A stretch of 64,000 nt of DNA, from assembly GCA_963754655.1 (NCBI GenBank), contig CAVWGN010000001.1:480001-544000 (forward strand), written 5' to 3'. Both the position numbers and the translations under genes were made by a program. The stretch is from an uncultured Chlamydiae bacterium. Its GTDB lineage: Bacteria; Chlamydiota; Chlamydiia; Chlamydiales; Parachlamydiaceae. Shown piece after piece: positions 9,633 to 30,255 of the stretch (its first letter is position 1; each line of letters starts with the position of its first letter). The notes under the pieces are model-generated. The model ran no database searches and was not told the origin of the DNA. It saw only the letters and a list, made by a program, of their open reading frames with translations.

Positions 9633-10664
9633 TCAAGGAAAGAATCCCTCTTCAAAAAAGAAAGAAGTTGTCCATAAAAGTTCTCCTAATCTCTCATAAA
9701 ATTCCTCTTTTTTTTGTAAATAAAAAGAACGATTCTTCAATCCTATTGAATGAAGTTGTTGAGGGGACAATTTTAGAAGAGATTGAATTTGATTCTCCAA
9801 TAAGACAGGATCAACGTAATAATTGATAGCTAAAAACCAAGGTTCTGAATGAGCATAAGGAACTAAACAGCGCGCATCGTGGATAAATTCGTTCATAGGT
9901 GGAGCATCTGTTGTTAAGACTACGGCACCTGTTGATAAGGCTTCCATAATAGAGTGTCCAAAGCCTTCAGTTTCACTTGGACATAAATGAATGCCGCATT
10001 GATTTTGAAGGGTGCGCAATTCTTTTTCAGGAATTCGATAGGGAATCCATTCGAGGTTGGATTGCGTAGAAGCAAAATCAGTTGGATATTTAATAACAGT
10101 TAAAAGGGGAAAATGAGGAGATGAAAGCCAGATATTTAAAATGGGAATCGTTCCTTTTTGAAGGCTTCCTCCTGCCAAATGGAAAAAATGGGAATAATCT
10201 TTTTTGACTTCTTTTCGATAACAATCAGGGCTTGTAAAGCCTATATAATAGGTTTGCTTATTCAATGCTTTGAAAATTCTTTCGATTTCTTTTGTACGAC
10301 ATAAGACTAAATCAATCTTATTGATTAAATCAATTGTCTGTTTATACCATTCAGGATTGGGAATAAACCAATTCAAATGGGCCCAATGATATTTCTCAGG
10401 GCACAAAATTTGAAAAAAAATATTGATGTGCGCACGGCGCTTTTTTGTTTCTTCGAAACTGACAAATTTGACAGAACAACCATATTGCTCTAATGCTTCT
10501 TTAAGAACTTTGAGATCGGTTTCCAATCCTCTACCATTATTTTCGCCGATAAGATTGATTTTTAGTGGCGTGGGAAGAATTTGATTTTCGGAAATAGCAA
10601 AGAGTGCGCAGAAAGAGAAAAGAAAGACAAATAATAAGGCTACAAAAGAAATTTTCTTATTCAT
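9633..10664 (-). CDS. GT-B (GT4-like) glycosyltransferase with signal peptide
   Basis: HLCPSETEGFGHSIMEALSTGAVVLTTDAPPMNE (EX7E motif); likely start MNKKISFVALLFVFLFSFCALFA at 10664. Confidence 0.85.
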   Translation of the reverse strand: MNKKISFVALLFVFLFSFCALFAISENQILPTPLKINLIGENNGRGLETDLKVLKEALEQYGCSVKFVSFEETKKRRAHINIFFQILCPEKYHWAHLNWFIPNPEWYKQTIDLINKIDLVLCRTKEIERIFKALNKQTYYIGFTSPDCYRKEVKKDYSHFFHLAGGSLQKGTIPILNIWLSSPHFPLLTVIKYPTDFASTQSNLEWIPYRIPEKELRTLQNQCGIHLCPSETEGFGHSIMEALSTGAVVLTTDAPPMNEFIHDARCLVPYAHSEPWFLAINYYVDPVLLENQIQSLLKLSPQQLHSIGLKNRSFYLQKKEEFYERLGELLWTTSFFFEEGFFP

Positions 10665-11204
10665 TTTTAGTTTATAGCTTAAATTGTTAAGAAAGCATCC
10701 CAGAACTGAGAAATATTCAGTTCTCTCTATCCAAGTTAAAAATAGCAGGATTCCTTTAATAAAATAAAGAAGAATTCTGCAACTAATTTCCAAAAAAATA
10801 TTTAAGGATTGGACTAATTATTTTGTCTTTGGCCCACGCAGTTTTATAATCAACTTATAAAACATTGCTAAATATGGGAGTGCGTTGGGGGTTGATGAAA
10901 ATGCCGTAAAACGAACTTCATCAAGTTCCAACGCACTGCTAAATCGAAAAATATCTATATTTGACAATTTTTTTAAAGCAACTTTTTCAATTTAAAATAC
11001 TTAAAGATTTAGGATTGAAAAATGGGAATAATAAATCTTGAAATATATATGAAAAAATCATAACTTTCTAAAAAATTAATTTTCATTTGTTTTGGGCAGA
11101 ACATCTTACGATATACCAAATTGAAGTCAAAAATGGAAATTTCGGCTTGGCTAAAGCCAATATCATTAATTTAAAGGTAATGAATTGATACGAAGCGGTA
11201 TTGG

Positions 11205-11699
11205 GCGTGTCTTAAAACCTTAGGGCAGAGGAACTGGACTAGTAATCTATTACATTTTTAAACTTTTCCTATACGTTAAGTTAAAAGATGAGCTTAGGTT
11301 AAGCGACGCATTCAGTCGCCGCGCCGCTTCGCTCCGGGCTTTAGGTGAGGGGTGTGGGACCCACCGTTCGGTCGTCCTCCGGGCTCGGCATGGTGGACTA
11401 GTATTAGTCGTCTTACGGACTCTACGGCAATGTAGAAGTCATTGAATGCTAGGCAAGGCGTTTTGATCATGCCCCTAGAGTCCGTAGGACGACTGATACT
11501 AGCCCACCGTGACCGAGCCCGGAGGGCGACCGAACGGTGGGTCCCACACCCCTCACCTAGAGCCCAGAGCGAAGCGGCGCGGCGACTGAATGCGTCGCTA
11601 GCCTAAGCTCATCTCTTAGCTTAATGCATAGGAGAGGTTTAAAGCCGTCTCCATTATGAAAAAACCGCTGTAAATGGGTAATAGTTTTTTAAGACACGC
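11205..11699. repeat. Palindrome family B, copy 1, inside gcgtgtcttaaaa/ttttaagacacgc terminal inverted repeats (MITE-like)
   Basis: Arms gacgcattcagtcgcc...ggactcta / tagagtcc...ggcgactgaatgcgtc around a ~42-nt loop; palindromic core ~11257-11643. Confidence 0.9.
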
Positions 11700-11819
11700 T
11701 AAGCGAGTGAGTGAGTCTAGGATATGCTGCACCGCCTTCGGTTATGTCAATATAAGTAGATGCATTAAAGATAATAGAGAGATCTTCAGTGAAATTAAAG
11801 CATGAAAATCCAAATTTAC

Positions 11820-12294
11820 CATATGCGCCGTAAAGCCCCGTCCTTCGAGGCTGACAGGAAATTGATAATTTCGGACTTATAACTTATCTTAATTGGTCTT
11901 GAGTATATTGTGAGTGGTTTCAAAAATTATTTAAAGCCTGAAATTATCAATTTCCTGTCAGTCTCTTCAGGATGGGAATATAAGGCGCAAAATTTCCAAA
12001 ATGCGCTTTAGCATTTTGGAAATTTTAATCTAGTGGCATTTTTTGATTTTCGATATATTGTTTAATGATTGAAATTGGCGCTCCGCCACAAGAGGCTGCA
12101 AAGTCACTTGAAGACCATAGCATGCCCTTCCAGTACGGGCCAAATAACGTGTTGGCGGCCGGGCAGGCCGCGTCGGCCTGTGGATCGAATCTCAATAGAG
12201 ATCGCAAGCAGGAACTAGTAGAAATCCGCGAGGAAGGTCTACTTCTTAAGTTAGCTTAAGGAATCCTCCACATTTATGCGGAGGAGGATGTCAA
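11820..12294 (+). mobile_element. Internally deleted IS200/IS605 (IS608-like) element: left end, tnpA 3' fragment (-), tnpB 3' fragment (+), right end
   Basis: TTAC at 11816-11819, then the AAAG-CCCC hairpin left end; TnpA tail LWSSSDFAASCGGAPISIIKQYIENQ (12025-~12140); TnpB-like tail NVLAAGQAASACG...RKQE (to 12259); right end GAATCCTCCACATTTATGCGGAGGAGGATGTCAA. Confidence 0.88.
11847..11965. mobile_element. 119-bp MITE inserted in the IS608-like left-end hairpin, 3-bp TSD (TTC)
   Basis: TIRs gaggctgacaggaaattgataatttc / gaaattatcaatttcctgtcagtctc; TTC at 11844-11846 and 11966-11968. Confidence 0.85.
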
Positions 12295-12335
12295 CTTAAG
12301 ATTGCATATGAGCAATCGCTAAAGAAACGGCAAAA

Positions 12336-13451
12336 ATGAATAGAATTCTTTATTATTTTATAAGCATCCTCTTCACATTAAATGCTATACAAGCAAGCTT
12401 ACCGTCAGATGAAAATACACAAAAAAAAGCGTTGATTTTTGGAGTGACGGGTCAAGATGGACATTACCTTACTGAATTGCTATTAAATAAAAACTATGAA
12501 GTTCATGGTGTTGCAAGGCATGCCCCTTTGCTAGCTAAAACTTCTAGTCAACAATCCAATCAAGATCATTTTTACTTTCACATAGGGGATATTACCAATT
12601 ACTCTCATTTGATTCATTTGATTGGAACAATTCGCCCTGATGAAATCTATAATTTAGCAGCTCAAACTCATGTACAAGCTTCATTTGAATACCCCGAGGA
12701 TACTGCTCAGATTAATGCTTTAGGGACTCTTCGAATTTTGGAGGCAGTGAGGATCTTAGATCTCGAGAAAAAAGTGAAATTTTTCCAAGCCTCTTCCAGT
12801 GAATTGTATGGTCTTGCACAAGAGACGCCGCAAACAGAAAAGACTCCTTTTTATCCTCGCTCACCTTATGGAGTTGCTAAGTTGTATGGCTATTGGATTA
12901 CCGTGAATTATAGAGAATCTTATGACATATTTGCTTGCAATGGAATTTTATTTAACCATGAATCTCCTTTAAGGAATGAAACATTTGTTACGCGCAAGAT
13001 TACCTTGGCAGCTTGCCGACATAAATTAGGGCTGCAAGATGTTCTTTATTTAGGAAATCTAGATGCTAAACGTGATTGGGGATATGCGAAGGACTATGTG
13101 GAGGCCATGTGGTTAATGCTACAACATGAAAAATCTGATGATTATATTATTTCGACAGGTGAAGGATATTCCGTGCGTGAATTTGTTGAACTTGCCTTTA
13201 AAGAACTTGATATTGAAATAGAATGGCGAGGAGAAGGTGTAGAAGAACAGGGAATTGATAAAAAGACAGGAGAAGTCCTCGTAAAAATTGATTCCAAATA
13301 CTATCGCCCAACTGAAGTGACTTATCTTTTAGGCAAAGCTGAAAAAGCTGAAAAAATCCTTAAATGGAAACCCAAAACAAGTTTTAAGGAACTTGTCAAA
13401 ATCATGATTGATGCAGACTATCAAAAAGCATTGAACGAAAAAGCGATGTGA
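12336..13451 (+). CDS. gmd: GDP-mannose 4,6-dehydratase paralogue 1 with signal-peptide-like N-terminus
   Basis: [49 protein letters not shown]. Confidence 0.93.
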
Positions 13452-13501
13452 TTTTGTTAAATTTTGAAATATTTATTCTTAACCCTCTCTGAGTAACAAA
13501 T

Positions 13502-14677
13502 ATGTTATTTTATCCTTTTTTCTTTACGCTAGCATGTCTCATTTTTAACTTAACAAATGTATTTGCAAATCATCAAACAATAGACGATGAAAGCAATCAA
13601 CCTAAAAAAGCGATCATTTTTGGCATCACAGGCCAAGATGGTGCTTATCTTACAGAATTCCTTCTAAACAAAAACTATGAAGTTCATGGTGTAATTAGGC
13701 GCTCTTCTTTAGCAAATACCACTCGTCTTGAGTCCTTTATTCAAGATTCAGCAACCTTTAATAAAAGCCTTTTTTTACATTATGGTGACCTAACAGACTC
13801 TATGAGTATTTTTGATCTTATTCAAAGAGTTCAACCGGATGAGATCTACAATTTAGCAGCCCAAAGTCATGTCAGAGTTTCTTTTGATCTTCCTGAATAT
13901 ACAGCAGAAGTAGATGCTCTTGGGACATTGCGTATTTTGGAAACAATTAAGCTATTAAATCTTTCAACAAAAGTAAAATTTTATCAAGCTTCAACAAGTG
14001 AACTCTATGGGCTTGTGCAAGAGACGCCTCAAACAGAAACGACTCCTTTTTATCCTCGCTCACCTTATGGAGTAGCCAAGCTCTATGGCTATTGGATCAC
14101 TGTGAATTATAGAGAATCTTATGGCATATTTGCTTGTAATGGAATTTTATTTAACCATGAATCTCCTCTTAGGGGAGAAACATTTGTTACGCGCAAAATT
14201 ACCTTGGCAGCTTGCCGTCATAAATTAGGGATGCAAGATGTTCTTTATTTAGGAAATCTGGATGCTAAGCGCGATTGGGGATATGCTAAAGACTATGTAG
14301 AGGCTATGTGGCTCATGCTGCAGCAAGATGTACCCAATGACTATGTCATCGCGACAGGCGAAGCACATTCAGTGCGTGAATTTGTTGAGCTTGCTTTTAA
14401 AGAACTTGACATTGGAATAGAGTGGCAAGGAGAAGGCGTAGAAGAGCAGGGTATTGATAAAAAAACAGGAAAAGCCATCGTAAAAATTGATCCTAGGTAT
14501 TACCGCCCAAGTGAAGTTGATTTTCTTTTAGGAAAGGCTGATAAAGCAGAAAAGATGCTTAAGTGGAAGCCTAAAACAAGTTTTAAGGAACTTGTCAAAA
14601 TTATGGTAGAAGCCGATTATAAAATAGGATTAAAGGAAAGAATGTTTATATTGAATGAGCATCCAATAGTATATTAA
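13502..14677 (+). CDS. gmd: GDP-mannose 4,6-dehydratase paralogue 2 with signal-peptide-like N-terminus
   Basis: [40 protein letters not shown]. Confidence 0.95.
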
Positions 14678-15702
14678 CAATAAATATGTCAATAGCATTC
14701 CCTGTTAAGTGAATTAAAATTTATAAATGAAAGTAGACCAATAATTGGAGGAGCAGCAATAATGGATAGTTAATGATTATGGTCTACAAAACAAGAACTA
14801 TTTTGAGCGGAGAATACGTAGAAGCTTAAGCGGTTTTTTTCAGAAGGTGCAGTAGTTTTTATTCCTCATTTATATTTTTATTGAGTATTTTGGCTCTTTT
14901 TATCTTTCTGCTTTATTAGTCTTACTTTGGCTTTTGGAAGAAAAAAGATAAATTCCAAACTATAAAACTTATTGTCTTTCTGGCATTCTTTTCAAATTTG
15001 ATTTTTTTCTCAAGTTGTTTGTTGTATTTTTCGCGTGCCTAAATGTAGTACGTATCTTTAACTTATATAGTTCAACAGATTAAGAAATTTAAATTCTCAA
15101 GCAATAACGCTTCTTAGCGCTAAGGATGATCTTCTATATTGTTGAAAATGCCGAGAAAATCAGTCTTTGTTTACACTCATAAAATAGTTGATTAACGATT
15201 TTGCGAACTTATTGCAAAAGTATAAATTTTTATTCATTTACAAAGATTCAAGAGATCGAATTATTTCATATATTTATTTGCTAAGCGATTGAAGGAGGAG
15301 CATCCTTTTTATTCTCTTGATTTTCTAGAATAAAGACACAAATTGAAAAACTTAATTATAGGCCATATATGGTAATTCCCTGTATAGATTTCACCATAAT
15401 ATTCTTTTAAAACTGCGCATCGATTAAGTCATAATGTTTGAAGTACAAGATTTGAACATTGCTAAGTCCTCTAAGGGGAAGCCTTGATAAGCAAGGCAAA
15501 ACAATATTTAAAATTGCAAACTTTTCCGATTTATATTTAACATCTGATCAAGCCAAGAAATAGGAGAAAAATCTTAGGGTTTTCTTTAACATTTAGAAAA
15601 GCAATTATTGGACAAGGGAGAGAATACTTTACTTCTAGACACATTTAACTTTATAAAGAAAATATGTAATCTTTAATTTAATGGGAATATGAAAATCTTT
15701 TA

Positions 15703-17201
15703 GTAATTACTCAGGTCTGCTTAGAGATTAAGTTAAGACTGTGGAAGAAAAATGACTAAAGGATTATCGATAAAAGCTTGTTCTATAGCTTTTAAAATTT
15801 TGAATCCTCTCTTAAGAGCGGTAGAAATAAAGCTTCGCAAGAGGCAAAATATTTTTGCGAAATAGGGTGAACGAAAGCAACCAGAGACCTTCATTTTGAG
15901 TTTCATCATTCGAAGATCGCGTTCGGCTAAGTTATTATCAAATGGAATATTCTTATTTCCTAAAAAGCGCAGCGTTTCTATTTTAACATTTTTCAATCGA
16001 TTAAGTAAATTTTTAGCTTTAGATTGTGCCTATTGTGCAGGACCGGTTTCTTCATATTCTTTAAAACCCCTTTCCAAGATGGCTTCGTACTTTGCTTCAA
16101 ATTCTTTTTGCTTAAGTTGTCTCTCTTCACTTTTATTAATTTCTTGCAATAGCTCCTTCATGTCTTTTGCCCACTTTAGTTTTGTCGTTTCAAAGGCTGC
16201 CTCAAGCTCTCTTAAATGATGAGCGTGGCAAAGAGAATGCTGGCAATCAAACTTAAAGTAAGGAGCATAGTGATCGTGTACAAGAACGCCTCTAAAACTC
16301 GGTAATACATCCATTTCAACCATTGCCAGGTAGCTTCTTCTCGGATGGGCAAAAAATAGCGTTGAGTCTTTAGTTGAGGCAACATGCAACCAAAAAAGTT
16401 GCTTATTTACTTTTAAAGCGGTTTCATCTGCATGCAAAATAGAAGATGTTTTAAGCTTTTTCCTTGAGAATTGCTTCAAAGCTTTGTTAATTTTTAGCTG
16501 TTAATTTTTCCACTCTGAATAAGGAAGCTTGGCTGAGGGTATGGCCAAAAACATCTTGGCAAAACTCTTGTACCCTTTGTGCTGAAACAAAATGATAATT
16601 ATGTAGATAGATAAGTAAGGATTTAAAATGTGGACCGTACTGCACGGGGGCACTTATTTCTTTGGATATACAAGGACGACAAATGGTCTGACAATAGGGA
16701 CATTGAATTTCATGAATATGGTGATCTGTTATCTTAATGCAAAGCTCTGGTATTTCAAACACTTGAGTCTTTGTAATTTGTCTATTAACTTGTTCTACAT
16801 TTTGCCCACATTGAGGGCAGTCTTTTACTTTGTACTCTTTAATTTCATCGGGTGTTTGTGAAGTCTTAAGAGTTCAGCCTTTATGTCCGATTTGTCCCCG
16901 CTTTTCTTGTCACTTTTAGGCTTTTTAGCTACAAATTTTTTAAAAACATCACTAGAAGGCGGCTTCTGACTATTGCTACTATTTCGATTAATTCTTTCCT
17001 CTAAAGCTTTCACTTTCATCTCTAGTTGATGCACTAATTCTTTTAACTTTTGATTCTCTTTCCAAAGAATCAGAATCAATGTATCTTTTTGTTCAGAGGT
17101 TAATTTAGTTAAATCCGGAAGCTTATCCATGCTTAACTCTCTTAATAGAATCTAATTAATTCTATTATAACAGTTTAAGCTTTTTGTGCCTAAGTAGTTA
17201 C
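15703..17201 (-). mobile_element. IS66-family element with frameshifted transposase pseudogene
   Basis: Fragments [58 protein letters not shown]; TIRs gtaattactcagg / cctaagtagttac; imperfect 8-bp TSD atctttta/atttttta. Confidence 0.92.
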
Positions 17202-17245
17202 ATTTTTTATAGGTAAATTTTCAACGATAAAATATAGAAATAAGC

Positions 17246-18740
17246 GTAACTACTCGGGCTATCAAAATAATTCTATAATTTGTGTATAATAGAGGAGGAT
17301 AACTTGATGGTTTTTTTATGGAAGAGCTCCCCCCTTAATCAATTATCTTTAGAGCAGAAAGATCTGTTGATTATTGAATTATTTGCGTTAGTAAAAGAAT
17401 TAAGAGAAAAAATAGCTTTCTTAGAGAGGAAAAACGCAGAGTTAAAAGCCAAGCTATCTTCTAATAGCCGAAATAGTCACAAGCCACCACCTTCAAGTGA
17501 TGGATTTAAAAAGCCAAAAAGTCTTAGATCCAAGAGTGAAAGACTCAGCGGAGCGCAAAAAGGGCACCTTGGCCATACATTAAAAGAAAGCGATCATCCC
17601 GATCGGGGGAATAGGCATCCCATAAAAAAAATGCCCTCATTGCGCCAGAAGTCTTGGAGAGGAAAATCATTTATATTGGAAAAAAGGCTCAAGTCTTTGA
17701 TATTCTATAACTAAAGATAGAAATAGAAGAATGTTTTTGCCTCAATTGTCAAAAGAGTTGCTCAGCGAACTTCCCTTCAGGAATGCGATTTATGGCCTAA
17801 GAATACAAGCTTTTCTCATCTATTTGAGAGACTATCACTACTTACCAAGTGAACGCACAGTCGAATTTTTTCAAGATGTTTTTCAGCACACTTTAAGCGA
17901 AGGTGTTATCTATCAAGCAGAAATGAATTGTAATGACCATTTAGAAGAGTTCGAAAAGCTGCTAAAGAATGCTTTAAAAGAGGCTCCGTTAAATCATGCA
18001 GATAAGACAACTTTAAGATTAAAAAAAATCATTGGCTACATGTTTTATCTAATCCTTGGTCAACCTATCTTTATATTCACAAAAAACGAGGTGGGAGGCG
18101 ATGGATGAAATAGATATTCTTTCTCACTTTCTTGGAATTCTGGTTCACAATCATTTTAAGCCTTACTTTAAATATGGCTATGAGCATTCATTATGCAATG
18201 CCCATCACTTAAGAGAACTGCAAGCAGTTTTTGATGATACCGGCCATTCATGGGCAGATTTAATGCAAATGTTACTTAAAGAAATTAAAGATACAAAAGA
18301 AACAAAAAGGCTTCTTGCGACTAACAAGAGAGTTTTTCAGACGAATATGATAGACTAATCAATCTTGGATACAAAGAACAAAAGAGCGCTCGCCGCCTTG
18401 TCGCCCAAAAGAGATCTGCTTGCTCGATCGCCTTAAATCTTATAAAACCCCAACTCTTCTTTTTATGTACAAAGAAGAAGTGTCATTTGATAATAACCAA
18501 GCGGAAAGAGACATTCGTATGATGAAACTCAAGATGAAAATAGCTGGGTGTTTCCGCAGTCAACAAGCAGCAAAAGCTTTCTGTCTAATTCGAAGTTATA
18601 TTTTCACCATGAAAAAAAATGGTATGGCTGTATTTCAATTTTTGGCGGATGTCTTTCATCCACCCTCTTCAGATTTCTTCTCAAGTATTCGCTTTTATTA
18701 AATTTGTCAAATCACAAATTATTACAACCTAATTATTTAC
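17246..18740 (+). mobile_element. Second, diverged IS66-family element with frameshifted transposase pseudogene
   Basis: [47 protein letters not shown]; ends gtaactactcggg / cctaattatttac; flanks aaataagc/taataagc. Confidence 0.9.
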
Positions 18741-18856: not shown

Positions 18857-19639
18857 ATGATGCGTTTATTCAAAATTCTCGTTTTCTTTTTTAGCTTATT
18901 GACTCATTTTTATAGTCAGGCCGCAGAGATAGAAGTGCCTTCACCATTTTTAATGTATAAAGTCGCTGGTACAGTAGATGAAGCTTGGTTTATAAACTCA
19001 GGAAAAGCATCTCTAGTAGATTTAGAAATTGCTTTGTCAACAGTTGGATATAATTTGACGGATTTTAAGAAAATTTTAGATTGGGGATGTGGTTGTGGAA
19101 GAATTACTCGCCACATGTCCGAAATAAAAAATTATGCTGAAATTCATGGATGTGATATTGATGCAGAGGCAATTAATTGGTCTAAAACTCATATTCCATT
19201 CGTAAATTTTTCTATTTGTGACGGACTTCCTCCAACTCTATATCCAAATAATTATTTCGATTTTATTTTTAGCCATAGCGTTATGACTCATTTGGATGAA
19301 AATTACCAAGATGCATGGTTGGCTGAATTAAAAAGAATTCTTAAGCCAGGAGGAGTGATAATCTTAAGCACCCATGGAGATACTGCAATATCAACATGGA
19401 TTGACTATCTCAGAGCCAATAATATTAATGCAGAACCTTATTTGAATGCTCTCGACCAAAGAGGTATGTGCTTTTGGAAGGATGATCAATGGGGAGGAAT
19501 ATTTCCTGATTTTTATCATTCCGCTTTTCATCGTGCGTGGTATATATATCAGCATTGGGGAAAATTTTTTCAAGTTAAATCCTATTTAGTACAAAGAGGT
19601 TTAGGTTGGCAAGATTATGTTGTAATGATGAAGGAATAG
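18857..19639 (+). CDS. Class I SAM-dependent methyltransferase with signal peptide
   Basis: ILDWGCGCGR, FDFIFSHSVMTH, LKRILKPGG; N-terminus MMRLFKILVFFFSLLTHFYSQA. Confidence 0.88.
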   Translation: MMRLFKILVFFFSLLTHFYSQAAEIEVPSPFLMYKVAGTVDEAWFINSGKASLVDLEIALSTVGYNLTDFKKILDWGCGCGRITRHMSEIKNYAEIHGCDIDAEAINWSKTHIPFVNFSICDGLPPTLYPNNYFDFIFSHSVMTHLDENYQDAWLAELKRILKPGGVIILSTHGDTAISTWIDYLRANNINAEPYLNALDQRGMCFWKDDQWGGIFPDFYHSAFHRAWYIYQHWGKFFQVKSYLVQRGLGWQDYVVMMKE

Positions 19640-19664: not shown

Positions 19665-20498
19665 ATGTTTATCGTACGCTTGTCTTACTTTTTAATTATT
19701 TTGTTATTAGCCTTTACATTTGATAGTGCATGGGCTCAACAATCACTTTTTCAAAGAATTAGGGGAACAAACCGAAAGGAAATAACTGAATTTGTTAAGC
19801 AATTTCCAGAAGAACAATATAAAGTTTATACAATTCCAGAATATGGAAGTTTTTATCTTGATGATATAGGTGATTATGTCAAAAGCATGTTAATCTCTGG
19901 TCATCCTTGGGAACCGCACATTAGAGAACTAATTTTTAAATATGTTAAACCTAAATCTATTGTATTGGATATTGGGGCTCATATTGGAACACATACATTA
20001 GATATGTCTAAACAAGTGGGACCTAAAGGACGGGTCTTAGCATTTGAACCCCAACCAAAAATTTTTCGAGAATTGTTTTGGAATGCAAGGTTAAATAAAG
20101 CAAAGAATATTTATTTTTATCCGGTTGCTGTAGGGGATCATAATGGCACAATTGAGTTAAGCCCGCTTCTACCTTATAATGAAGCTGGAACGAGTCTTAT
20201 TTGGGGAGGCGCTGGAAAGTTTATGCCTCTAATTACTATCGATTCATTAATGTTGAATAATGTATCTCTTATAAAAATTGATGTTGAACTTCAAGAAAAT
20301 TTAGTCCTAGATGGTGCAAAAGAAACTATTGCAAGGTGCCGTCCTGTAATTCTTATTGAAATTAGAGGAGATTACGGATTTGAAAATGCCCCACCTGCAA
20401 TCAAAGATGAGATTGTATTTACAATATCCAAATTAGAAAGGATGGGATATACAGTTACATGTATAGGTCATGCTGATTTTTTAGCTATTCCCATTTAA
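19665..20498 (+). CDS. FkbM family methyltransferase with signal peptide
   Basis: VLDIGAHIGTHT, VLAFEPQP, LIKIDVE; N-terminus ...LLAFTFDSAWA-QQ. Confidence 0.9.
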   Translation: MFIVRLSYFLIILLLAFTFDSAWAQQSLFQRIRGTNRKEITEFVKQFPEEQYKVYTIPEYGSFYLDDIGDYVKSMLISGHPWEPHIRELIFKYVKPKSIVLDIGAHIGTHTLDMSKQVGPKGRVLAFEPQPKIFRELFWNARLNKAKNIYFYPVAVGDHNGTIELSPLLPYNEAGTSLIWGGAGKFMPLITIDSLMLNNVSLIKIDVELQENLVLDGAKETIARCRPVILIEIRGDYGFENAPPAIKDEIVFTISKLERMGYTVTCIGHADFLAIPI

Positions 20499-21377
20499 TG
20501 GAAAAATTAAGATTAGTCATCTACCTTTTCATCGAGCTTATTTTAACTGTGTTTTGAGTTTTTCTCTATTTGATTGCGACTTTGATGTAACCAAATGGCG
20601 AAAAAACTCAAAACACCTTCGATGATTGAACTCCTCGTTGATTTTCTAATTTAGACTCCTTGTATACTTAAATTTCAATATTGTTTACTGGTCAAGGGAT
20701 CAGGAAAGCAAAGAATCAATATTTAACTTCATATTTGAAGTTTTGCAAAATTAATTAATTCACGTTGGCACAGCCCTAAAGTGGCCAGTATATCTTCTCT
20801 TTTCTTATGCCTTTCTGTAATTTCTTCGATAACCCAGCTTATAGTCTTACCAAGAGTCTCTTCTAGTACAAATCGACAAGCTTCACCAATTGTATTTAGA
20901 GTGATTTTTGCCCGTTCACACGGATGATTCTTTTTCAATATTGAAACTAAGAGACTATGCGCTAAGATGACAAGATACATGTGCCTTGTTTGGCTTTGTC
21001 CGCTTCTTAGCTGACATTCTCCCATTCCTAAATATTGTTTGCCATCCCGGTGAAATGTTTCTGTACCACTCCAGCGTTTTTTATAAGCGTTCTATATACG
21101 TCTGACTTCCCACTTGATGCGATTAGTCACTAAAATTTTAACTGGATCTTTATCATTCTTTATGTCCCAAAGAATAAGAATTCGCACTTTATGATCAATG
21201 TTGGGAATGTGGCAGCTCTTCGTAAAATACCATTGTTTTTTTTCCATTCCATTCAATCGTTTTCGGTTTTTCGGCTAAATTGATCCAGCCTCTTCAATTG
21301 CATGCATTTGCTTGCCTTGAAAATCTACCCAACGATCGAACTTCAAATCTCCTACATAAGCTCTATCTAAGCTGTTA

Positions 21378-22586
21378 TAGTAATTTCAATTTAAAATTTC
21401 TTAATTGCAAACTTTCAAAAAAGATTGATCAATTGCTTCAGCAAGACTTGAAAATAAGTTTAAAACCTCTTTTACACTCCTCTTAAAATTGGCCCAAAAT
21501 TTTTCAATCGGATTCAAATCAGGAGAATATGGTGGTAAAATAAATTTCACATCCTGCCTTTTGAATGATTTCTACGCTTGTTTTGGACTTATGAAAACTC
21601 GCATTATCCATAATGACCGCTTGTCCTGATTTCAGCTCCGGAACTAAGTTGCTCGAGCCATGCGTTAAATAAATTTGTATTGCATGTTCCGGTATAGCAA
21701 AATGGCGCTAAAATGCTTGATTGATTCTGAGCTGCTATAAAGCTTTCCCTAGAATATCGACTTCCGGAAACTGCTCCATATACTTTTTGTCCTCTGATTG
21801 CCCTTGCATTTTCTCTTTGCAAATATTCATGGATCCCACTTTCATCAATATAGACTCTTTTTTCTTCGGGAATGTCTTCCTAAGTTTAAGAGCATCGCCG
21901 TTACGATACTTCCTTTAAGAAATAATTGATCCAGAAGGTCACAAATTGCAGTAATTTCATTGCTTTTATCATCTACTTTTAGCTGCCCTAAACAAACTTT
22001 ATTTTCACAGCTCCAAGCATGTAAAAGATGAACCACTTGTTTATCATTAGCTTTATCTTTGGATCCACGTAAGCTCTTGCCATCTATTGCAATGACATCA
22101 TCTGCCAACTTTTGTCGAAATAACTGAGCGACTTCTTGAAGCATAGCTTCTAAAGAGAGAGGGTTAATTAGAGAGATCACTCGTTCCAAAGTAAAAGCAG
22201 AGGGAGTACCTGAAGAAATATCCAAGTATTGCCCTAGCCAATCTTGCATAGCCTCTGCCATATTGGACATCTCTTCCCAATCTTCAGCTCCGCATAACAT
22301 AGTAACCGTAATGATGAAAAGAATAGTTGTTAAAGAATAGCTAAAATTTGGAGATAGACCACGAGGATCTTCTATTCTTTCTAAAATTGCTATAAATTGT
22401 GTTTGTGCTGCTGGATGATCGAATATTGGCTTTTTCAAATGAATGAGCGCCCTCTTTTTTTCATGAATAACTCCTAATTTTCATGAATAAGTCCTAATAA
22501 GTAGGTTATAACTCTAAAAAGTATAACTACTTTACAACTAGAAGTCGATTATTCAAAAAAGTGTTTTAATGCTAGAGCCCTGACTA
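21378..22586 (-). mobile_element. IS630-family element remnant inserted at TA inside the IS701-like transposase
   Basis: VYIDESG, IMDNASFHK and PPYSPDLNPIEKFW motifs; TA duplication; removing it restores NHI-NSLDRAYVGDLK. Confidence 0.85.
21886..22582 (-). mobile_element. ISAs1-family 5' fragment (left end plus truncated transposase)
   Basis: End CAGGGCTCTAGCATT; ORF ..IEDPR..IAIDGKSLRGS..VCLGQLKVDDKSNEITA..GSIVTA, then fused to IS630 sequence. Confidence 0.88.
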
Positions 22587-23430
22587 TAATATGATTTAAA
22601 GGCCTTGCATTCGTATAATAGCTATCAAATACGAAGTCTCCCGGAATCTTGTTAGCGACTATCCAATCCACCAATTCAATGAAGAGATCAGTATGATCTT
22701 TGAAAGGAATTTGCTTCTCTTTGCAATTCTCCTCCTTTATAAAGCATCGGAATTCAAGAGGATAATGCTTGCTTGATGAACATATGTAATTGGCTATTAA
22801 ATAATCGTGTGCTATTATGCTTCTTTTTTCTGCATGATCCCCCATCCAGCCTACATCCTCAATAAATTGGCCGTCATGATCAATCAGTACATAATTGTTC
22901 CATACTTTGAATATCTGGTTGTTGGATCTTCTTGGTGAAATTTCAACCTTTCTTCATTTAATTGCTCAGCATTCCAATCAACACTTGTTATCCATCGGTT
23001 TAAGCAGGATTGGTCTGTTGTTTGTGCAAACTCAGCATTCATGCCGTTGGCTGTTTTCCTCTGCGCCAACAATAAACCCGTTAAATACTCTCCAACATGT
23101 TGCCTCTCAGGTTCATTAGCAAAAAGATGTCCAAACTTTTTAATGGCTTCTTGAACAATTTGCGGAAACTCTACTATTGCAGGCATAATAATATCTCCTA
23201 ATAGAAGAGCTATAGTTTTAATTTTACCACATTTTCAAATTTGCAAAACTTCAGTTCATATCTCAATATAGACACCCATATTTTTAGATTGGAGCTTATA
23301 TTGGAAACACATTCATTAGCTATGTCTAAACGATTAGGGCTATGGAAGGTGAAAGAGTTTTCACAAAGGCAGTTGATTGCATCTGTCAATCAAGTTTGAT
23401 CAGAATGGTTTCTATGCAAATTCAATTGCT

Positions 23431-24369: not shown

Positions 24370-24469
24370 TTTTCTATTTCCTTTTTTTTTTGTAATTTAT
24401 GCTTATAGCATTTAAAAAATCATAAAGATAAACGTAGGCAATTCAGTTAAAATTTGATTATGAAGAAAA

Positions 24470-25672: not shown

Positions 25673-25873
25673 AAAAAATCTATATTTTCTAGTTTATATT
25701 GCTTCATGTCTTAAATTTAAATTTATTAAAATTTCTAGGTTGAGATTCGCATTTGTTTTTGCCATTGTAAAGCAATTAATGAAGAATTCGTGTAGGTTGT
25801 GCATTTAGATTTTCGTTTGGAGCGTAAAGGTTTCCTTTTTCAAACCTGTATGCGTACTTTTATAAATGAGTAT

Positions 25874-26815
25874 TTAGAGTTCTTTAGCTGCCATTTTTCG
25901 AAAAACTGAATGAATAGATTGTTTGATATGTGGAAGTTCTGGAAATTCTTTTTGCAACTTTGTTGTATCTAATTCATTATTTGATCTTCGTGCTTTTAAG
26001 ATTTCATTTTGTTCTTCTATCGTAAAGTTCGTATAAGTAAAGTTAGGATCAATATACGTCTTATAAAGATCAAGAAGCTCATTGTGAGAAATGGTGCCAG
26101 GATTCACGAAATTAAAATTTCCTTTTAAATTGCACAAAGTCATCTTAATTGCAATTGGCAAAAGATCATCTAAAATAGACATGGAATTGGGAATATTAAT
26201 GACTTTTTGATACTTTGTAATTTTAGTGATAAAGTTTTTAGGATGTAGTTCAGAAGAAATAGGCATTCTCAGCCGCAAGTTCAAAACATTGGGATAAGAA
26301 TCAAGCAACTTTTCAAGCATGATTTTAGTTTTTGAGTAGAAGGATCCTGCAAAATTAGGTTCATCTTCTTCGGTAAAGCCTTTGCCGCTGCCCATGGGGT
26401 GCTCAGCATCATATTCATAGATACAGCCAGTCCCAAAATTGGTGACGTGAATGTCATGAAGATAAGCGATATCTGCTAAATTTAATATTCCAATAATGTT
26501 GGTGCGAATTGTTTGTTGTTGATGGTCCTCGCACCAATCAACATTGGGAGTTCCAGTCAATCCTGCACAATTGAAGATGTAATCTGGACGTCTGAGTTGA
26601 ATTTCGCTTTCGACTTCTTCTCTATTTTCCAGTCTTGATTCTGCGACATAGACAATCTGGCCCTCTTCACGCAAAAGGACAACCATTTTTTGTCCAATCC
26701 AACCAGTTTTTCCTCCCCAAACTAAAAAGACTTTATTTGAATTTTCATCTGCATAACCATACAATCGGCTGATAAGAAGACATAAAAAAAATATAAAATT
26801 TAGTGAATTTTTCAT
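25874..26815 (-). CDS. UER1/NRS-ER-type bifunctional 3,5-epimerase/4-reductase (RmlD-like SDR) with signal peptide
   Basis: GGKTGWIG, NCAGLTGTPNVDWCE, TGCIYEYD, GSFYSKTK, LRLRMPIS, ARRSNNELD. Confidence 0.85.
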   Translation of the reverse strand: MKNSLNFIFFLCLLISRLYGYADENSNKVFLVWGGKTGWIGQKMVVLLREEGQIVYVAESRLENREEVESEIQLRRPDYIFNCAGLTGTPNVDWCEDHQQQTIRTNIIGILNLADIAYLHDIHVTNFGTGCIYEYDAEHPMGSGKGFTEEDEPNFAGSFYSKTKIMLEKLLDSYPNVLNLRLRMPISSELHPKNFITKITKYQKVINIPNSMSILDDLLPIAIKMTLCNLKGNFNFVNPGTISHNELLDLYKTYIDPNFTYTNFTIEEQNEILKARRSNNELDTTKLQKEFPELPHIKQSIHSVFRKMAAKEL

Positions 26816-26854
26816 GAATATTCCTTTGTCAATTGTGTTTTTATATTCAAGCTA

Positions 26855-27976
26855 TCATTGTAAAATGAGTTCACCATTTGGTGTGCGAATTTCAATAAGA
26901 GAATCATTTTCCATCTTCTGCCAAATTTCAGGATGATTTTTGTACCATTCAATTGTTTGATGAATTCCTTCTTCTAAAGAAATTGTTGCACTCCAGTTGA
27001 GCAGAGCCTTAGCTTTGTTAGTAGAAGAAATATGGGTATCAACTTGGCCAGGTCGATCGGTGATAAACTTCAATTGAGAATAAGGCAAGTTAAACTCTTT
27101 AAGAATGAGATGGGCAATTTCAAGGACGCTTGTTGCAATACCTGAACCAATATTGATGACTTGTTGCTTAATTGAATCAAAATTTTCAAGATGTAAGGCT
27201 GCATCGATGGCTTTAGCCATATCTGATGTGTGTATCCAATCTCTTTTTTGTTGCCCTGAGCCATGAATGGTTAAAGACTCGCCTTTAATAGCCGATGTGA
27301 TAAGGCGTGGAATCAACTTTTCCAGGTGTTGGTTAGGTCCATAATTATTAAAAGGACGTAAAATTACAGCGGGTACGTTAAAAGTACAACAATAAGAATA
27401 GACTAATCGATCAGCACCCACTTTTGCTGCAGCATAGGGCGAACGTGCATTGAGCAGATGCTCTTCATTCATAGGTTCGCTTTCAGCTGTTCCATACACT
27501 TCCGAGGTCGATATATGAATAAAGCGTTCAATATTTTTAGAATATTTGACAACAGCGCTCATGAGCACACGAGTTCCAAGGACATCTGTGGAAAAAAACA
27601 CAGCATCATCTTTAATACTGCGTGTCACATGTGTTTCGGCTGCAAAATGCACTACAAAATGAGATTTAGCCATGGCAGCATTCACAACGCTTTCATTTGT
27701 AATGTTATCATGAATAAATTCAAAGCGCGGCGATTTTTGAATATATTCTGGAATCTTATCTAAAGAACCGGCATAGGTAAGAGCATCTAAAACGATAAGC
27801 TTATAACTGGGATATTTATCAAACATATATTTGATGAAATTGCTCCCAATAAAACCAGCTCCTCCTGTTACTAAAACGGTTTTCTCATTTTCATTTGGTA
27901 AAGTTTCTCGGGCATATAGAGCCGACTGCTGTGAAAGAAAAAATAAAAGGTATAGAGTTAGACGAAAGTAGGCCAT
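26855..27976 (-). CDS. rmlB: NDP-glucose 4,6-dehydratase with signal peptide
   Basis: VLVTGGAGFIGSNF, DALTYAG, HFAAETHV, HISTSEVYG, SPYAAAK, NNYGPNQ. Confidence 0.88.
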   Translation of the reverse strand: MAYFRLTLYLLFFLSQQSALYARETLPNENEKTVLVTGGAGFIGSNFIKYMFDKYPSYKLIVLDALTYAGSLDKIPEYIQKSPRFEFIHDNITNESVVNAAMAKSHFVVHFAAETHVTRSIKDDAVFFSTDVLGTRVLMSAVVKYSKNIERFIHISTSEVYGTAESEPMNEEHLLNARSPYAAAKVGADRLVYSYCCTFNVPAVILRPFNNYGPNQHLEKLIPRLITSAIKGESLTIHGSGQQKRDWIHTSDMAKAIDAALHLENFDSIKQQVINIGSGIATSVLEIAHLILKEFNLPYSQLKFITDRPGQVDTHISSTNKAKALLNWSATISLEEGIHQTIEWYKNHPEIWQKMENDSLIEIRTPNGELILQ

Positions 27977-28242
27977 ATAGTTCCTTGGTTTTCAAATAAA
28001 AACAGGTTAAATTGAGCTAAAATTTTAAAAGAAAAGGTATAAAAAACAAAAATTAATTTGCAAGTTAAAATGGCATCTTCCTATATAATATTTATGATAA
28101 CTTTCATTTCTCCAGCCATATTGGGATTAATCCGGTTAAATTAACAGGAGTAGAAAACCCTGGTTAAAATGAAAATTACATTATATAGTCATCGTTTTTT
28201 TATTGATAGTACCTTCCTATTAAATGCTCTTAGGATTCATCT

Positions 28243-30255
28243 ATGAATATTTTACCTTTCTTACTTCCTTTAGCAGGATTGCTTTTTCTATCGTTTCTTC
28301 AAACGCTGGAAGCTCAACATTCAGACTCTCCCAATTATCTTTTTGAAGAGGGTGAACTCATTTTTCCTTCCGATCAATTTAAAAAAGAGGCCAATTTACA
28401 GTCATGGGCGCTTTTCAATGAAGCGCGAGACAATAGAGAGGCATTTTGGGCCAAGCAAGCGCAATGTCTGCATTGGTTTCGTACTTGGGAGCGCGTCTTG
28501 GAATGGAATCCTCCCTATGCCAAGTGGTTTGTGGGCGGGAAGCTAAATGCGTGCTACAATTGTTTAGATAGGCATATGCAATCGGCGATTCGTGATAAAG
28601 CTGCCCTCATTTGGGAGGGAGAAAGAGGCGAAGAAAGGACATTGACCTATGCACAGCTCTATCAAGAGGTTAATCAATTTAGCAATGTTTTGAAATCGTT
28701 GGGCATTCAAAAGGGAGATAAGGTAGTCATTTATCTTCCTCTGATTCCTGAGGCAGCTGTTGCAATGCTGAGCTGCGCACGCATTGGTGCCGTGCATACA
28801 GTTGTGTTTGGAGGTTTTTCTGCAGAGGCTTTAAAAGATCGTATCTTAGATGCAGAAGCCAAGCTTGTCATTACAGCGGATGGGGGATTTCGCAAAGGGA
28901 AGATTGTTCCTCTTAAAGAAGCCGCTGATTTAGCAGCTAAAGAATGCCCTTGCGTGCAGAATGTCATTGTTATTAAACATACTCAGCAACCTATTCCTAT
29001 GCAGAAAGGACGAGATCATTGGTATGATGCCTTAATGAATCATGCTCAACCTTTCTGCCCTGCCGAAGAAATGGATGCCGAAGATGTGCTCTACATTCTT
29101 TATACTTCGGGCACAACAGGTAAGCCTAAGGGCATTGTACACACAACAGGTGGCTACATGGTGGGAGTGACAATGACCACCCGTTGGGTTTTCGATATCA
29201 AGCCTTCTGACATTTACTGGTGTACAGCTGATATTGGTTGGGTGACCGGCCATAGCTATGTGGTTTATGGTCCTCTTTCCAATGGAATGACACAGCTGAT
29301 GTATGAAGGAGCTCCTGATTGGCCGCAAAGAGATCGCTTTTGGAAGCTAATTGAAAAATACAAAGTCAGCATTCTTTACACCGCTCCTACTGCGATTCGT
29401 ACCTTCATGAAATGGGGAGAAGAGTGGTTAAAAGGCAGCAACCTCTCTTCATTGCGGCTGCTGGGATCCGTGGGAGAGCCTATCAATCCACAAGCATGGA
29501 TGTGGTATTATACGCATGTGGGACAAGAAAAATGTCCTGTGATTGACACTTGGTGGCAAACGGAAACAGGCAGTATTATGATTGCTCCTATTCCGGGGTT
29601 GACAGCTCTTAAACCGGGTAGCGCAACGCTTCCTTTACCAGGAGTAGATGTGGCAATTCTAAATGAACAGGGCGAACATTCCTCTTCAGGCTTGCTTGCC
29701 ATCACTTCTCCTTGGCCTTCGATGCTAAGAGATGTTCATAAAGATCCTAAGCGATATGAAGACACTTATTGGAAAAAGTGGGAGGGTCGTTATTATTTTA
29801 CTGGCGATGGGGCTAAGCAAGATGTAGATGGCTATTTTTGGCTCATGGGACGTGTCGATGATGTGATGAATATCTCTGGTCATCGCATTGGTACAATGGA
29901 AGTGGAAAGCGCTTTTGTCGATCATCGCAGCGTGGCAGAAGCGGCAGTGATTGGAATTTCTCATCCAATTAAAGGACAAGCAATTGCGGCTTTTGTGACT
30001 CTTAAAGAGGAGTTTTATTCTAGCAAAGAATTGGAAGAGGAGCTCAAGCAACATATTGTTAATAAAATTGGCGCTATTGCACGGCCAGAAAAAATAATTT
30101 TCATCTACGATCTTCCGAAAACACGAAGTGGGAAAATCATGCGTCGCCTTCTTCGTGATATTGCTGAAGGAAGGATTTTAGGAGATGTCACGACTTTATC
30201 CGATCCAGCAGTCATTAATGAAATTAAAAGCAAATACGACGATGAAGCAATTTGA
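28243..30255 (+). CDS. acs: Acetyl-CoA synthetase (AMP-forming) with signal-peptide-like N-terminal extension
   Basis: YTSGTTGKPKG, DTWWQTETG, YFTGDG, GRVDDVMNISGHR, LPKTRSGKIMRR. Confidence 0.95.
   Translation: MNILPFLLPLAGLLFLSFLQTLEAQHSDSPNYLFEEGELIFPSDQFKKEANLQSWALFNEARDNREAFWAKQAQCLHWFRTWERVLEWNPPYAKWFVGGKLNACYNCLDRHMQSAIRDKAALIWEGERGEERTLTYAQLYQEVNQFSNVLKSLGIQKGDKVVIYLPLIPEAAVAMLSCARIGAVHTVVFGGFSAEALKDRILDAEAKLVITADGGFRKGKIVPLKEAADLAAKECPCVQNVIVIKHTQQPIPMQKGRDHWYDALMNHAQPFCPAEEMDAEDVLYILYTSGTTGKPKGIVHTTGGYMVGVTMTTRWVFDIKPSDIYWCTADIGWVTGHSYVVYGPLSNGMTQLMYEGAPDWPQRDRFWKLIEKYKVSILYTAPTAIRTFMKWGEEWLKGSNLSSLRLLGSVGEPINPQAWMWYYTHVGQEKCPVIDTWWQTETGSIMIAPIPGLTALKPGSATLPLPGVDVAILNEQGEHSSSGLLAITSPWPSMLRDVHKDPKRYEDTYWKKWEGRYYFTGDGAKQDVDGYFWLMGRVDDVMNISGHRIGTMEVESAFVDHRSVAEAAVIGISHPIKGQAIAAFVTLKEEFYSSKELEEELKQHIVNKIGAIARPEKIIFIYDLPKTRSGKIMRRLLRDIAEGRILGDVTTLSDPAVINEIKSKYDDEAI

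Follow-up and report, generated by a model that had tools for sequence, protein, structure and literature searches.

Introduction

In Chlamydia trachomatis, glycogen enzymes and a phosphoglucomutase are secreted by the type III system into the inclusion lumen (GlgA, CT295; PMC4829429, PMC9251005), and UDP-glucose is imported into the inclusion (PMC4829429). In Waddlia, the nucleoside diphosphate kinase (NDK) Ndk2 has a predicted signal peptide of 19 residues, and ndk2 sits together with ndk1 in Parachlamydiaceae, Waddliaceae and Criblamydiaceae (PMC13318545, PMC7143554). Ndk2 was detected by mass spectrometry in the host cytosol fraction; of the 19 Waddlia proteins in this fraction, signal peptides were predicted for 13 (PMC13318545, PMC7143554). 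Here we describe an island of ten genes, among them genes for sugar-nucleotide dehydratases, glycosyltransferases and methyltransferases, at 9633-30255 of a window of 64,000 nucleotides (positions 480001-544000 of contig C1) from an uncultured member of the Parachlamydiaceae with a genome of 3.16 Mb in two contigs and 38.8% GC. All ten genes encode a hydrophobic, signal-peptide-like leader, as do more than 20 further genes beyond the island for enzymes of cytoplasmic or eukaryotic-Golgi type. The reading that we cautiously favour is that of a Sec-exported, extracytoplasmic, Golgi-like sugar-nucleotide and glycosylation system that would be fed by the host.

The set resembles the glycogen enzymes of C. 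trachomatis in that housekeeping carbohydrate enzymes appear with acquired secretion signals, a phosphohexomutase being present in both sets, and in that the vacuole would be a compartment whose metabolism is controlled by the bacterium; in C. trachomatis, UDP-glucose is used there outside the bacterium. It differs in the signal, which is of type III in C. trachomatis and a Sec-type hydrophobic leader here, and in breadth, as a few glycogen enzymes there compare with short-chain dehydrogenase/reductase (SDR) enzymes, Leloir glycosyltransferases, methyltransferases and helpers for cofactors and energy here. The location of the glycogen enzymes is experimentally supported, whereas the location proposed here is read from sequence alone. 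Like the Ndk2 system, the present genome has a leaderless ndk directly beside the leader-bearing copy (62% identity), but a linker of ~70 residues separates leader and NDK domain, unlike in the described Ndk2. The available text of the Ndk2 papers treats this protein as a single effector, without a link to a wider leader-bearing set. In the literature covered, Ndk2 is the only member of the set that is already in print as signal-peptide-bearing and found outside the bacterium.

Results

In accordance with the initial annotation, all ten genes of the island that do not belong to insertion sequences (IS) encode an N-terminal hydrophobic leader before a recognisable catalytic domain. As background we used 2137 non-overlapping open reading frames (ORFs) of at least 120 aa, with the first ATG crudely taken as start; a signal-peptide-like N-terminus was present in 413 of them (19%), and in 279 (13%) without further transmembrane (TM)-like segments. 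Ten of ten far exceeds what chance would give, with the reservation that neighbours in the genome do not count as independent. Family or structure matches of the island proteins begin 25-56 residues in; they are preceded by a short n-region, a run of hydrophobic residues and, in most cases, an alanine. As stated before, the leaders have sequences that are not related to each other, and the same is true of the enzymes that carry them.

Two of the genes are predicted to encode GDP-mannose 4,6-dehydratases (GMDs), Gmd1 (12336-13451, plus strand; leader of ~20 aa; PF16363 E 2e-140, residues 33-357) and Gmd2 (13502-14677, plus; leader of ~22 aa; PF16363 E 1.8e-151, residues 39-368). Both match the PF16363 profile almost over its full length (positions 1-332 and 2-332, respectively) and above the curated cut-off, and the Rossmann glycine motif (GxTGQDG) is intact. 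An NDP (nucleoside diphosphate)-glucose 4,6-dehydratase with leader (RmlB-like; 26855-27976, minus) was recognised by PF16363 (E 2e-67) and by dTDP-glucose 4,6-dehydratases in the PDB that match from residue ~30. The neighbouring leader-bearing gene (UER1-like, here UER; 25874-26815, minus) is assigned to the eukaryote/giant-virus-type NRS/ER enzymes, bifunctional NDP-4-keto-6-deoxyglucose 3,5-epimerase/4-reductases, by its close full-length match to solved members (PDB 4qqr, '3,5-epimerase/4-reductase', E 1e-105, residues 25-302; 7jid, 'UDP-L-rhamnose synthase', E 5e-66). At the edge of the island lies the gene for a leader-bearing acetyl-CoA synthetase, Acs (28243-30255, plus; Pfam ACAS_N, from residue 56, AMP-binding and AMP-binding_C), which is the sole Acs found in the genome, all other blastp matches being similar to nonribosomal peptide synthetases. 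The initial annotation had included it in the island pathway, but the DNA of the gene has a normal GC content (0.43, compared with 0.29-0.37 in the island) and only 50 of the 117 nearest homologues have a leader.

The GT4-family glycosyltransferase at 9633-10664 (minus; Pfam Glycos_transf_1 E 1.3e-9) has the leader MNKKISFVALLFVFLFSFCALFA followed by ISE; translation probably begins with the ATG at 10664 rather than with the TTG upstream of it, and a leader-bearing paralogue is encoded at genome positions 1538310-1539404. In the gene for a class I S-adenosylmethionine (SAM) methyltransferase (Methyltransf_11/25; 18857-19639, plus; Pfam E 8e-16), the leader MMRLFKILVFFFSLLTHFYSQA, followed by AE, begins at the internal Met codons 30/31 of a longer ORF from 18770; a G-rich stretch similar to a Shine-Dalgarno (SD) motif precedes these codons, and 18857 is the likely start. 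The leader of the FkbM-family methyltransferase (Methyltransf_21; 19665-20498, plus; Pfam E 9e-20) ends in AWA before QQ, and AGGAGG lies upstream of its ATG.

Two further proteins had been labelled as similar to glycosyltransferases, and this label fared differently in the two cases. P6 (23431-24369, minus) had no Pfam or PDB sequence match and fits no CAZy or Pfam family, but its AlphaFold2 model, made from an alignment of 15 sequences, reached a predicted local distance difference test (pLDDT) score of 92. Foldseek aligned this model to 162 PDB chains at E<=1e-3, with TM-scores of only ~0.4, and the top matches listed were mostly GT-A-type glycosyltransferases (COLGALT1, LARGE1, B3GalT6, glycogenin, GnT-I). 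The aspartates D152 and D154 of a DxD motif are invariant across the 15 sequences, and the leader (…SPLSA, followed by KVRFLTFHYN) ends directly before the first beta-strand. By its predicted structure, P6 is thus a GT-A, DxD-type transferase outside the catalogued families. The leader-bearing P7 (24470-25672, minus) also had no Pfam or PDB sequence match; its model, from an alignment of 4 sequences only, had a pLDDT of 61, and although most top Foldseek rows were GT-B glycosyltransferases, the best E-value was 3.3e-3 and none reached 1e-3. With no sequence match, a low-confidence model and weak fold matches, P7 stays 'GT-B-like, unproven'. Protein-atlas matches of P6 and P7 to unnamed chlamydial clusters and to phage 'glycosyltransferase' clusters are leads only.

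In the SDR enzymes and Acs, no Met had been noted between leader and catalytic domain; this was borne out, and it holds when GTG and TTG are counted as well. Codons 2-60 of Gmd2 include neither ATG nor GTG nor TTG, and the RmlB-like gene has no alternative start before codon 51. For Acs (TTG13) and UER (TTG18), the alternative starts lie inside the leader, and those of Gmd1 (TTG33, GTG37) lie at the first beta-strand and lack an SD-like motif. A clear SD motif precedes few of the starts in use. By this start-codon evidence the leaders are translated, because Gmd2 and the RmlB-like gene offer no alternative start.

Across the Chlamydiota, leaders were found to be conserved as a property and not as a sequence. 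With starts taken from heterogeneous public gene calls, a leader was present in 104 of the 120 sequences closest to Gmd2 (67-100% identity; the window's own two copies included), most of which derive from metagenomes; these leaders were unrelated sequences before the conserved 'KKALIF' strand, while leaderless homologues start with a sequence similar to 'MKKKALIT'. In the best 30 Chlamydiota loci, 26 of 32 GMD genes were leader-bearing, compared with 0 of 82 genes among the non-chlamydial matches listed (79 loci, 58-70% identity to Gmd2). A GMD match (E<=1e-60) was present in 158 of 401 sampled Chlamydiota genomes and in only 7 of 45 from the family to which the window belongs, consistent with a mobile island. 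Leaders of glucose-6-phosphate dehydrogenase (G6PD), one of the enzymes beyond the island, were present in 49 of 114 homologues, which form the nearest clade, with the clade of ordinary leaderless chlamydial Zwf next to it; this suggests an old duplication after which one copy was export-tagged. Homologues of P6 occurred in 12 of 150 other sampled Chlamydiota genomes, and 14 of 15 distinct chlamydial homologues had a leader. P7 was found in one other sampled genome, of the same genus, with three paralogues that all bear leaders, and three of the four chlamydial UER homologues had leaders and leader-bearing neighbours. Among 150 representatives of bifunctional PAPS (3'-phosphoadenosine 5'-phosphosulfate) synthase, only the top 3 were clearly leader-bearing, with a hydrophobic N-terminus in 18 overall. 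Since many Acs relatives and some GMD relatives are leaderless, leaders have been both gained and lost among relatives. Where present, they diverge to the point that they cannot be aligned yet keep their physico-chemical pattern, which points to selection on a translated targeting peptide.

In one relative (locus L187, G112:C22:114367-118440), the GMD frame holds a hydrophobic leader upstream of the Met that is apparently used in the public annotation, and the publicly annotated GMD protein P0020 of a relative begins with MVGSTIQ…, downstream of the leader seen in L187. Start sites of leader-bearing genes may be systematically mis-called downstream of the leader.

A reading in which the leaders would be non-functional and represent mis-called starts, untranslated upstream sequence or relics from genes of eukaryotes or giant viruses, is in our view hardly credible. 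The annotation of P0020 from an internal Met, which makes at least one such case among relatives, and the scarcity of clear SD motifs would be compatible with it, but Gmd2 and the RmlB-like gene have no other start, and Acs and UER have one inside the leader only. The low GC content of the island (0.29-0.37 compared with 0.388), the IS remnants flanking and within it and eukaryote- or virus-type genes such as NRS/ER would fit relics, but bacterial-type enzymes (GMD, G6PD, NDK, Acs) bear leaders too, and the n/h/c pattern is kept in hundreds of homologues with leaders that do not align, which implies selection on the peptide.

The kind of leader was assessed by comparing 33 enzyme leaders with those of 30 proteins of periplasmic or outer-membrane families from the same genome, using crude home-made n/h/c heuristics. 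In this layout, defined by a basic n-region, an h-region of 7-15 hydrophobic residues and a polar c-region, the enzyme leaders were indistinguishable from those of the bona fide exported proteins: on average, 1.36 basic and 0.12 acidic residues preceded the h-region in the enzymes (1.33 and 0.13 in the controls), the h-region comprised 11.5 residues (11.2), the uncharged span 19.1 (20.3), and the next 12 residues contained 1.33 basic and 2.0 acidic residues (1.27 and 2.0). Small residues at -1 and -3 were present in 33 of 33 enzyme leaders and 25 of 30 controls, by a permissive rule (site 16-30 residues from the start) that allows many chance matches. Basic-in/acidic-out charge together with short h-regions argues for N-in/C-out signal peptides and not for N-out tethers or stable TM anchors.

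Tethering is the essence of a further explanation, in which the leaders would be membrane anchors (N-out/C-in or in-plane) of cytoplasmic catalytic domains, forming a metabolon on the cytoplasmic side of the inner membrane beside a lipid-carrier or transport step without extracytoplasmic chemistry. Such an arrangement would remove the problem of cofactor supply and account for Acs, pyrophosphatase and UDPGP enzymes that exist only with leader, and a PMT_2-type transferase for lipid-linked sugars is encoded in the window (51486-53036). The leaders of Gmd2, Acs, GT10 and the second Methyltransf_11 lack a basic n-region, as would be expected of tethers, but so do some bona fide exported proteins of the genome. 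The charge is the reverse of that of a tether, with a mean of +1.36 in the n-region and a net acidic downstream flank as in true exported proteins, the mean h-region of 11.5 residues is too short for a stable TM helix, and small residues occupy -1 and -3 in all 33 leaders. Moreover, N-anchored glycosyltransferases of eukaryote-type families have lumenal catalytic domains. We consider the tether explanation improbable.

Tat signals were ruled out, as twin arginines were absent from all 33 leaders although TatC is encoded (genome C1:196012-196818). Without twin arginines, export would proceed through Sec, as unfolded chains. Inc-type or type III signals were set aside as well, because by eye the leaders are a single h-region of ~12 residues at the extreme N-terminus and not the bilobed hydrophobic domain of Inc proteins. 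For export, the genome encodes a LepB-like signal peptidase I as well as GspE, whose gene adjoins a secretin and pseudopilin-like ORFs. Lipobox-like motifs were found in two of the 33 leaders, those of G6PD (LSAC) and pyrophosphatase (LFSC); the lipobox cysteine of G6PD is not kept in every G6PD homologue. In the leader-bearing G6PD itself (L044:1-1602, plus; genome C1:1020085-1021686), LSAC is followed by a Cys-rich linker (…CEEDCQALSKEC…), although the clade to which this protein belongs contains half as much cysteine as the leaderless Zwf clade.

Leader-bearing enzymes beyond the island were sought with a Pfam scan (E<=1e-7) of the window ORFs and of the signal-peptide-like ORFs in the rest of the genome (259 of 265, as 6 ORFs of >1300 aa were dropped). 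Many of the scanned proteins are ordinary exported proteins, such as solute-binding proteins, porins, BamA, TolC-like proteins, proteases, amidases and beta-lactamases. Among the more than 20 remaining enzymes, those of sugar-nucleotide metabolism comprise an Fcl-like epimerase, a GalE-like epimerase, PMM/PGM and two UDPGP-family enzymes, one of which is a UDP-GlcNAc pyrophosphorylase of UAP/AGX type (PDB 8yp3 E 6e-64, aligned from residue 44). Potential helper enzymes are G6PD (domain from residue 50), NDK (domain from residue 94), an inorganic pyrophosphatase, two copies of a Ppx/GppA-family phosphatase and the PAPS synthase, which combines ATP sulfurylase and APS kinase. Leader-bearing glycosyltransferases belong to GT2, GT10 (fucosyltransferase family), GT17, GT34 (with methyltransferase domain), GT92 (five proteins) and DUF6492. 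A second Methyltransf_11, an AdoMet decarboxylase and a spermidine synthase also carry leaders. Candidates in which the 'leader' proved by Pfam to be the first Rossmann or P-loop strand were discarded, namely 6PGD, IspD, adh_short, adenylate and guanylate kinases, UDP-glucose dehydrogenase, FabF-like, DAO and FAD enzymes, LMW phosphatase and Mrp/ParA.

The genome also contains a classical rmlA-rmlC-rmlD-rmlB operon (genome 432435-435809), none of whose products has a leader, as their domains begin at residues 2, 20, 3 and 10; the island, in contrast, holds a rhamnose branch of eukaryote/virus type made up of two leader-bearing enzymes. Local blastp identified leaderless paralogues of G6PD (two, 55% and 41% identity), NDK (the adjacent gene, 62%), GalE (60%) and RmlB (35%). 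ManC and GalU were not found by a PF00483 search of the genome, which matched RmlA, a GlgC-like gene, a small NTP_transf_3 protein and IspD only; the label GlgC-like rests on sequence reading and a neighbour resembling glycogen phosphorylase. The lack of ManC and GalU fits substrates that are made or obtained outside the cytoplasm.

Several leader-bearing genes lie next to each other. The Fcl-like epimerase gene (L019:16088-17098, plus) is directly upstream of that for PAPS synthase (L019:17400-19124, plus; genome C1:250959-253995 for both). No sulfotransferase family was found among the scanned leader-bearing proteins at E<=1e-7, and two proteins with an FGE-sulfatase domain have leaders. The genes for spermidine synthase (L074:1-1038, plus) and AdoMet decarboxylase (L074:1084-1527, minus; genome C1:1945885-1947411), each single copy by local blastp, are divergently arranged; that both are leader-bearing hints at polyamine synthesis outside the cytoplasm. 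Four leader-bearing proteins without Pfam match (L021:1-876, minus; L082:15080-16309, plus; L086:5738-6610, plus; L089:13313-14215, minus) have mature N-termini that look alike by eye (…I/L-x-x-I/L-P-x-x-D/E-R/K-x-A-L…) and may represent an uncharacterised secreted family.

The nearest named relatives of the window proteins carry the labels Candidatus Protochlamydia phocaeensis, Chlamydiales, Parachlamydiales, Chlamydiota and Simkania, and genes for porins of the Pom family (Pfam 'Protochlamydia outer membrane protein') occur in the genome; we treat the organism as an environmental chlamydia similar to Parachlamydiaceae. The GC content of the island is 0.29-0.37 between 10 and 28 kb (calculated over 2-kb windows), compared with 0.388 for the genome. 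According to Pfam searches, the ten genes are accompanied by IS remnants. Two broken, divergently oriented IS66-family transposases occupy 15733-18701, each split into several short ORFs with DUF6444 N-terminal parts and DDE_Tnp_IS66 fragments, and a degraded transposase region (20729-23186, minus) matches DDE_Tnp_1_assoc at 21845-22438, with no Pfam match in its remaining ORFs. The contrasting gene at the border of the island encodes the leaderless SAM synthetase MetK (8340-9542, minus), with a Pfam match from residue 4. About 2.4 kb from metK lies a gene for an EamA/DMT-family transporter (4974-5900, minus). Nucleotide-sugar and SAM carriers occur among DMT proteins, and this transporter could be a candidate supplier of the exported methyltransferases. 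Elsewhere in the window, leader-bearing proteins are a fusion of GT34 (GMA12/MNN10-type) and Methyltransf_24 domains (44711-45991, minus; Pfam and leader features) and a GT92-family glycosyltransferase (50011-50952, plus; Pfam) with an N-terminal hydrophobic segment and four paralogues elsewhere in the genome. Three more leader-bearing ORFs of the window are of unknown family (30356-30862, plus; 35907-36683, minus; 58252-59163, plus), the first of which has a C-terminal hydrophobic segment besides its leader.

Discussion

The leader-bearing set suggests that a glycan is built outside the inner membrane from host metabolites. In the extracytoplasmic system that we favour, the leaders would be signal peptides of the ordinary Sec type; the majority are probably removed by signal peptidase I, and a few may be lipoprotein-like or uncleaved anchors. 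The enzymes would cross the inner membrane and work in the periplasm and then, via type II secretion or release of vesicles, in the inclusion lumen, as a self-contained, Golgi-like route to a glycan. Host glucose-6-phosphate would be converted by the exported PMM/PGM, and eukaryote-type (UAP/UGP-type) pyrophosphorylases would produce UDP-sugars in a reaction pulled by the exported pyrophosphatase. The RmlB-like dehydratase and the NRS/ER-type reductase could form NDP-L-rhamnose, while the two GMDs together with the exported Fcl-like enzyme could form GDP-fucose or other 6-deoxyhexoses. The GDP-mannose required for the latter is probably derived from the host, because no ManC was found. The exported G6PD would regenerate NADPH for both reductases, and Ndk2 would recycle the released NDPs together with the Ppx/GppA-like phosphatases. 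Transfer of the sugars is assigned to GT4, the GT-A enzyme P6, GT10, GT17, GT34 and GT92, after which methyltransferases would decorate the product, possibly with additional use of Acs-derived acetyl-CoA and PAPS. Export, cleavage, compartment, substrates and product are what we infer here, and so is a joint action of the enzymes outside the cytoplasm. A more ambitious version, in which periplasm and inclusion lumen would house a largely self-sufficient Golgi-like factory of environmental chlamydiae, which would draw on glucose-6-phosphate, NTPs and GDP-mannose of the host for its UDP- and GDP-sugars, with its own regeneration of NADPH and NTPs (nucleoside triphosphates) and a methylated, sulfated and possibly acetylated product, appears to us possible rather than probable.

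The initial annotation had proposed that the pathway of the island was relocated as a whole. Its basis stands, in that the leaders are translated, signal-peptide-like and conserved, but the pattern is genome-wide and wider than the island, and the assumption of a strictly cytoplasmic occurrence of ATP, NAD(P), SAM and NDP-sugars is weak for organisms that take up host metabolites via inclusion and periplasm. Chlamydiae import ATP, other nucleotides, NAD and SAM. Import of glucose-6-phosphate has been described as well (PMC4829429). All of these compounds must pass through the inclusion and the periplasm.

Several observations weigh against extracytoplasmic synthesis. Sec exports unfolded chains, so GMD, the RmlB-like and GalE-like enzymes and G6PD would have to acquire NAD(P)+ outside the cytoplasm, and the reductases, methyltransferases, Acs, PAPS synthase and NDK need free NADPH, SAM, ATP and CoA there; that cofactors are loaded once Sec export is complete and that such free pools exist in the compartment are assumptions of our scheme. 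By local blastp, Acs, pyrophosphatase, PAPS synthase, AdoMet decarboxylase, spermidine synthase and both UDPGP enzymes are encoded as leader-bearing copies only, and their full export would strip the cytoplasm of the respective functions. This poses a difficulty, at least with regard to pyrophosphatase and the supply of UDP-sugars. Leaderless relatives are frequent for Acs (67 of 117) and occur for GMD (16 of 120). The cysteine content was considered as a possible mark of export: within the genome, 4 of 4 leader-bearing paralogues are poorer in Cys than the leaderless copy, but across homologues a depletion was seen in G6PD only (0.45% compared with 0.88%) and neither in GMD (0.71 and 0.70) nor in Acs (1.54 and 1.58). 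Given this mixed result from sequences that are not phylogenetically independent, the mark was set aside. Finally, the localisation of Ndk2 comes from heterologous systems, and its authors doubt that the signal peptide dictates bacterial secretion (PMC13318545).

Alternatively, the exported enzymes could be effectors that reach the cytosol or the secretory pathway of the host via type II secretion or outer-membrane vesicles and alter host glycans or the pools of nucleotides or sugar nucleotides. NADPH, SAM, ATP, CoA and GDP-mannose are all present in the host cytosol, and GT10, GT17, GT34 and GT92 are eukaryote-type families. Besides the detection of Waddlia Ndk2, with its predicted signal peptide, in the host cytosol fraction, the Ndk2 papers report that its signal peptide directed mCherry to the Golgi or perinuclear region of transfected cells and cite CPAF as a signal-peptide protein that reaches the cytosol (PMC13318545, PMC7143554), although this heterologous localisation is possibly artefactual according to the authors (PMC13318545). 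Folded enzymes would also need some route across the inclusion membrane. The host cytosol already has G6PD, NDK, pyrophosphatase, PMM, UAP and GMD, and a set with so many housekeeping functions would better suit a compartment that lacks them. We therefore prefer a pathway in the lumen or periplasm to a role as effectors, which we regard as unlikely, mainly on the argument that the host cytosol needs no imported G6PD, NDK, pyrophosphatase, PMM or UAP.

The proposed extracytoplasmic pathway has parallels in eukaryotes, where type II-anchored UDP-xylose synthase, plant UDP-glucuronate 4-epimerase and the hexose-6-phosphate dehydrogenase of the endoplasmic reticulum (ER) act in the lumen of ER or Golgi. 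GT10, GT17, GT34 and GT92 are typical of the same lumen. The likeness lies in SDR-type NDP-sugar enzymes and G6PD that have N-terminal signals or anchors and accompany GT-A and GT-B transferases. GMD, the rhamnose enzymes, UAP, PMM, NDK, pyrophosphatase and PAPS synthase also bear leaders here, unlike in eukaryotes, where they work in the cytosol and their products are passed on by transporters. We regard the likeness as an analogy and claim neither homology nor shared descent for the whole set. Plant UDP-glucuronate 4-epimerases have been linked to a Protochlamydia protein (PMC3220709). Compared with the classical RmlABCD and Gmd/Fcl pathways, chemistry and folds are the same, but the classical enzymes are cytoplasmic and begin within ~10 residues of the Rossmann strand, and the rhamnose branch of the island has a single epimerase-reductase of eukaryote/virus type in place of RmlC and RmlD.

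In the literature covered, which did not extend to subscription journals and supplements, no report on leader-bearing GMD, rhamnose, G6PD or glycosyltransferase enzymes of chlamydiae was found, the Ndk2 papers being the only ones to turn up, and the available parts of PMC3417536 and PMC2811131 contained nothing on leader-bearing enzymes.

If our reading is correct, the glycan would be expected to contain rhamnose and fucose, to be O-methylated and possibly sulfated, and to be located either at the surface of the bacteria or within the matrix of the inclusion; its formation would depend on GDP-mannose and glucose-6-phosphate from the host, and the enzymes would have mature N-termini at defined sites directly after an alanine (A/X). 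To our knowledge, bacteria make and use nucleotide sugars in the cytoplasm only, and lipid-linked donors serve for glycosylation outside the inner membrane. A phylum-wide, export-tagged sugar-nucleotide set with its own housekeeping of NADPH, NTPs and pyrophosphate would break this rule. In the more ambitious version, it would be the first example of a bacterium that makes nucleotide sugars, and glycosylates with them, beyond its cytoplasm, and a candidate for the source, or for a mirror, of the eukaryote-type enzymes of lumenal glycosylation. For the chlamydiae, metabolism of the inclusion under bacterial control would widen from the glycogen of C. trachomatis to complex glycans in the more diverse environmental members. 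The leader-bearing set would extend the known secreted metabolic enzymes of chlamydiae and, if the compartment is confirmed, it could represent something categorically new.

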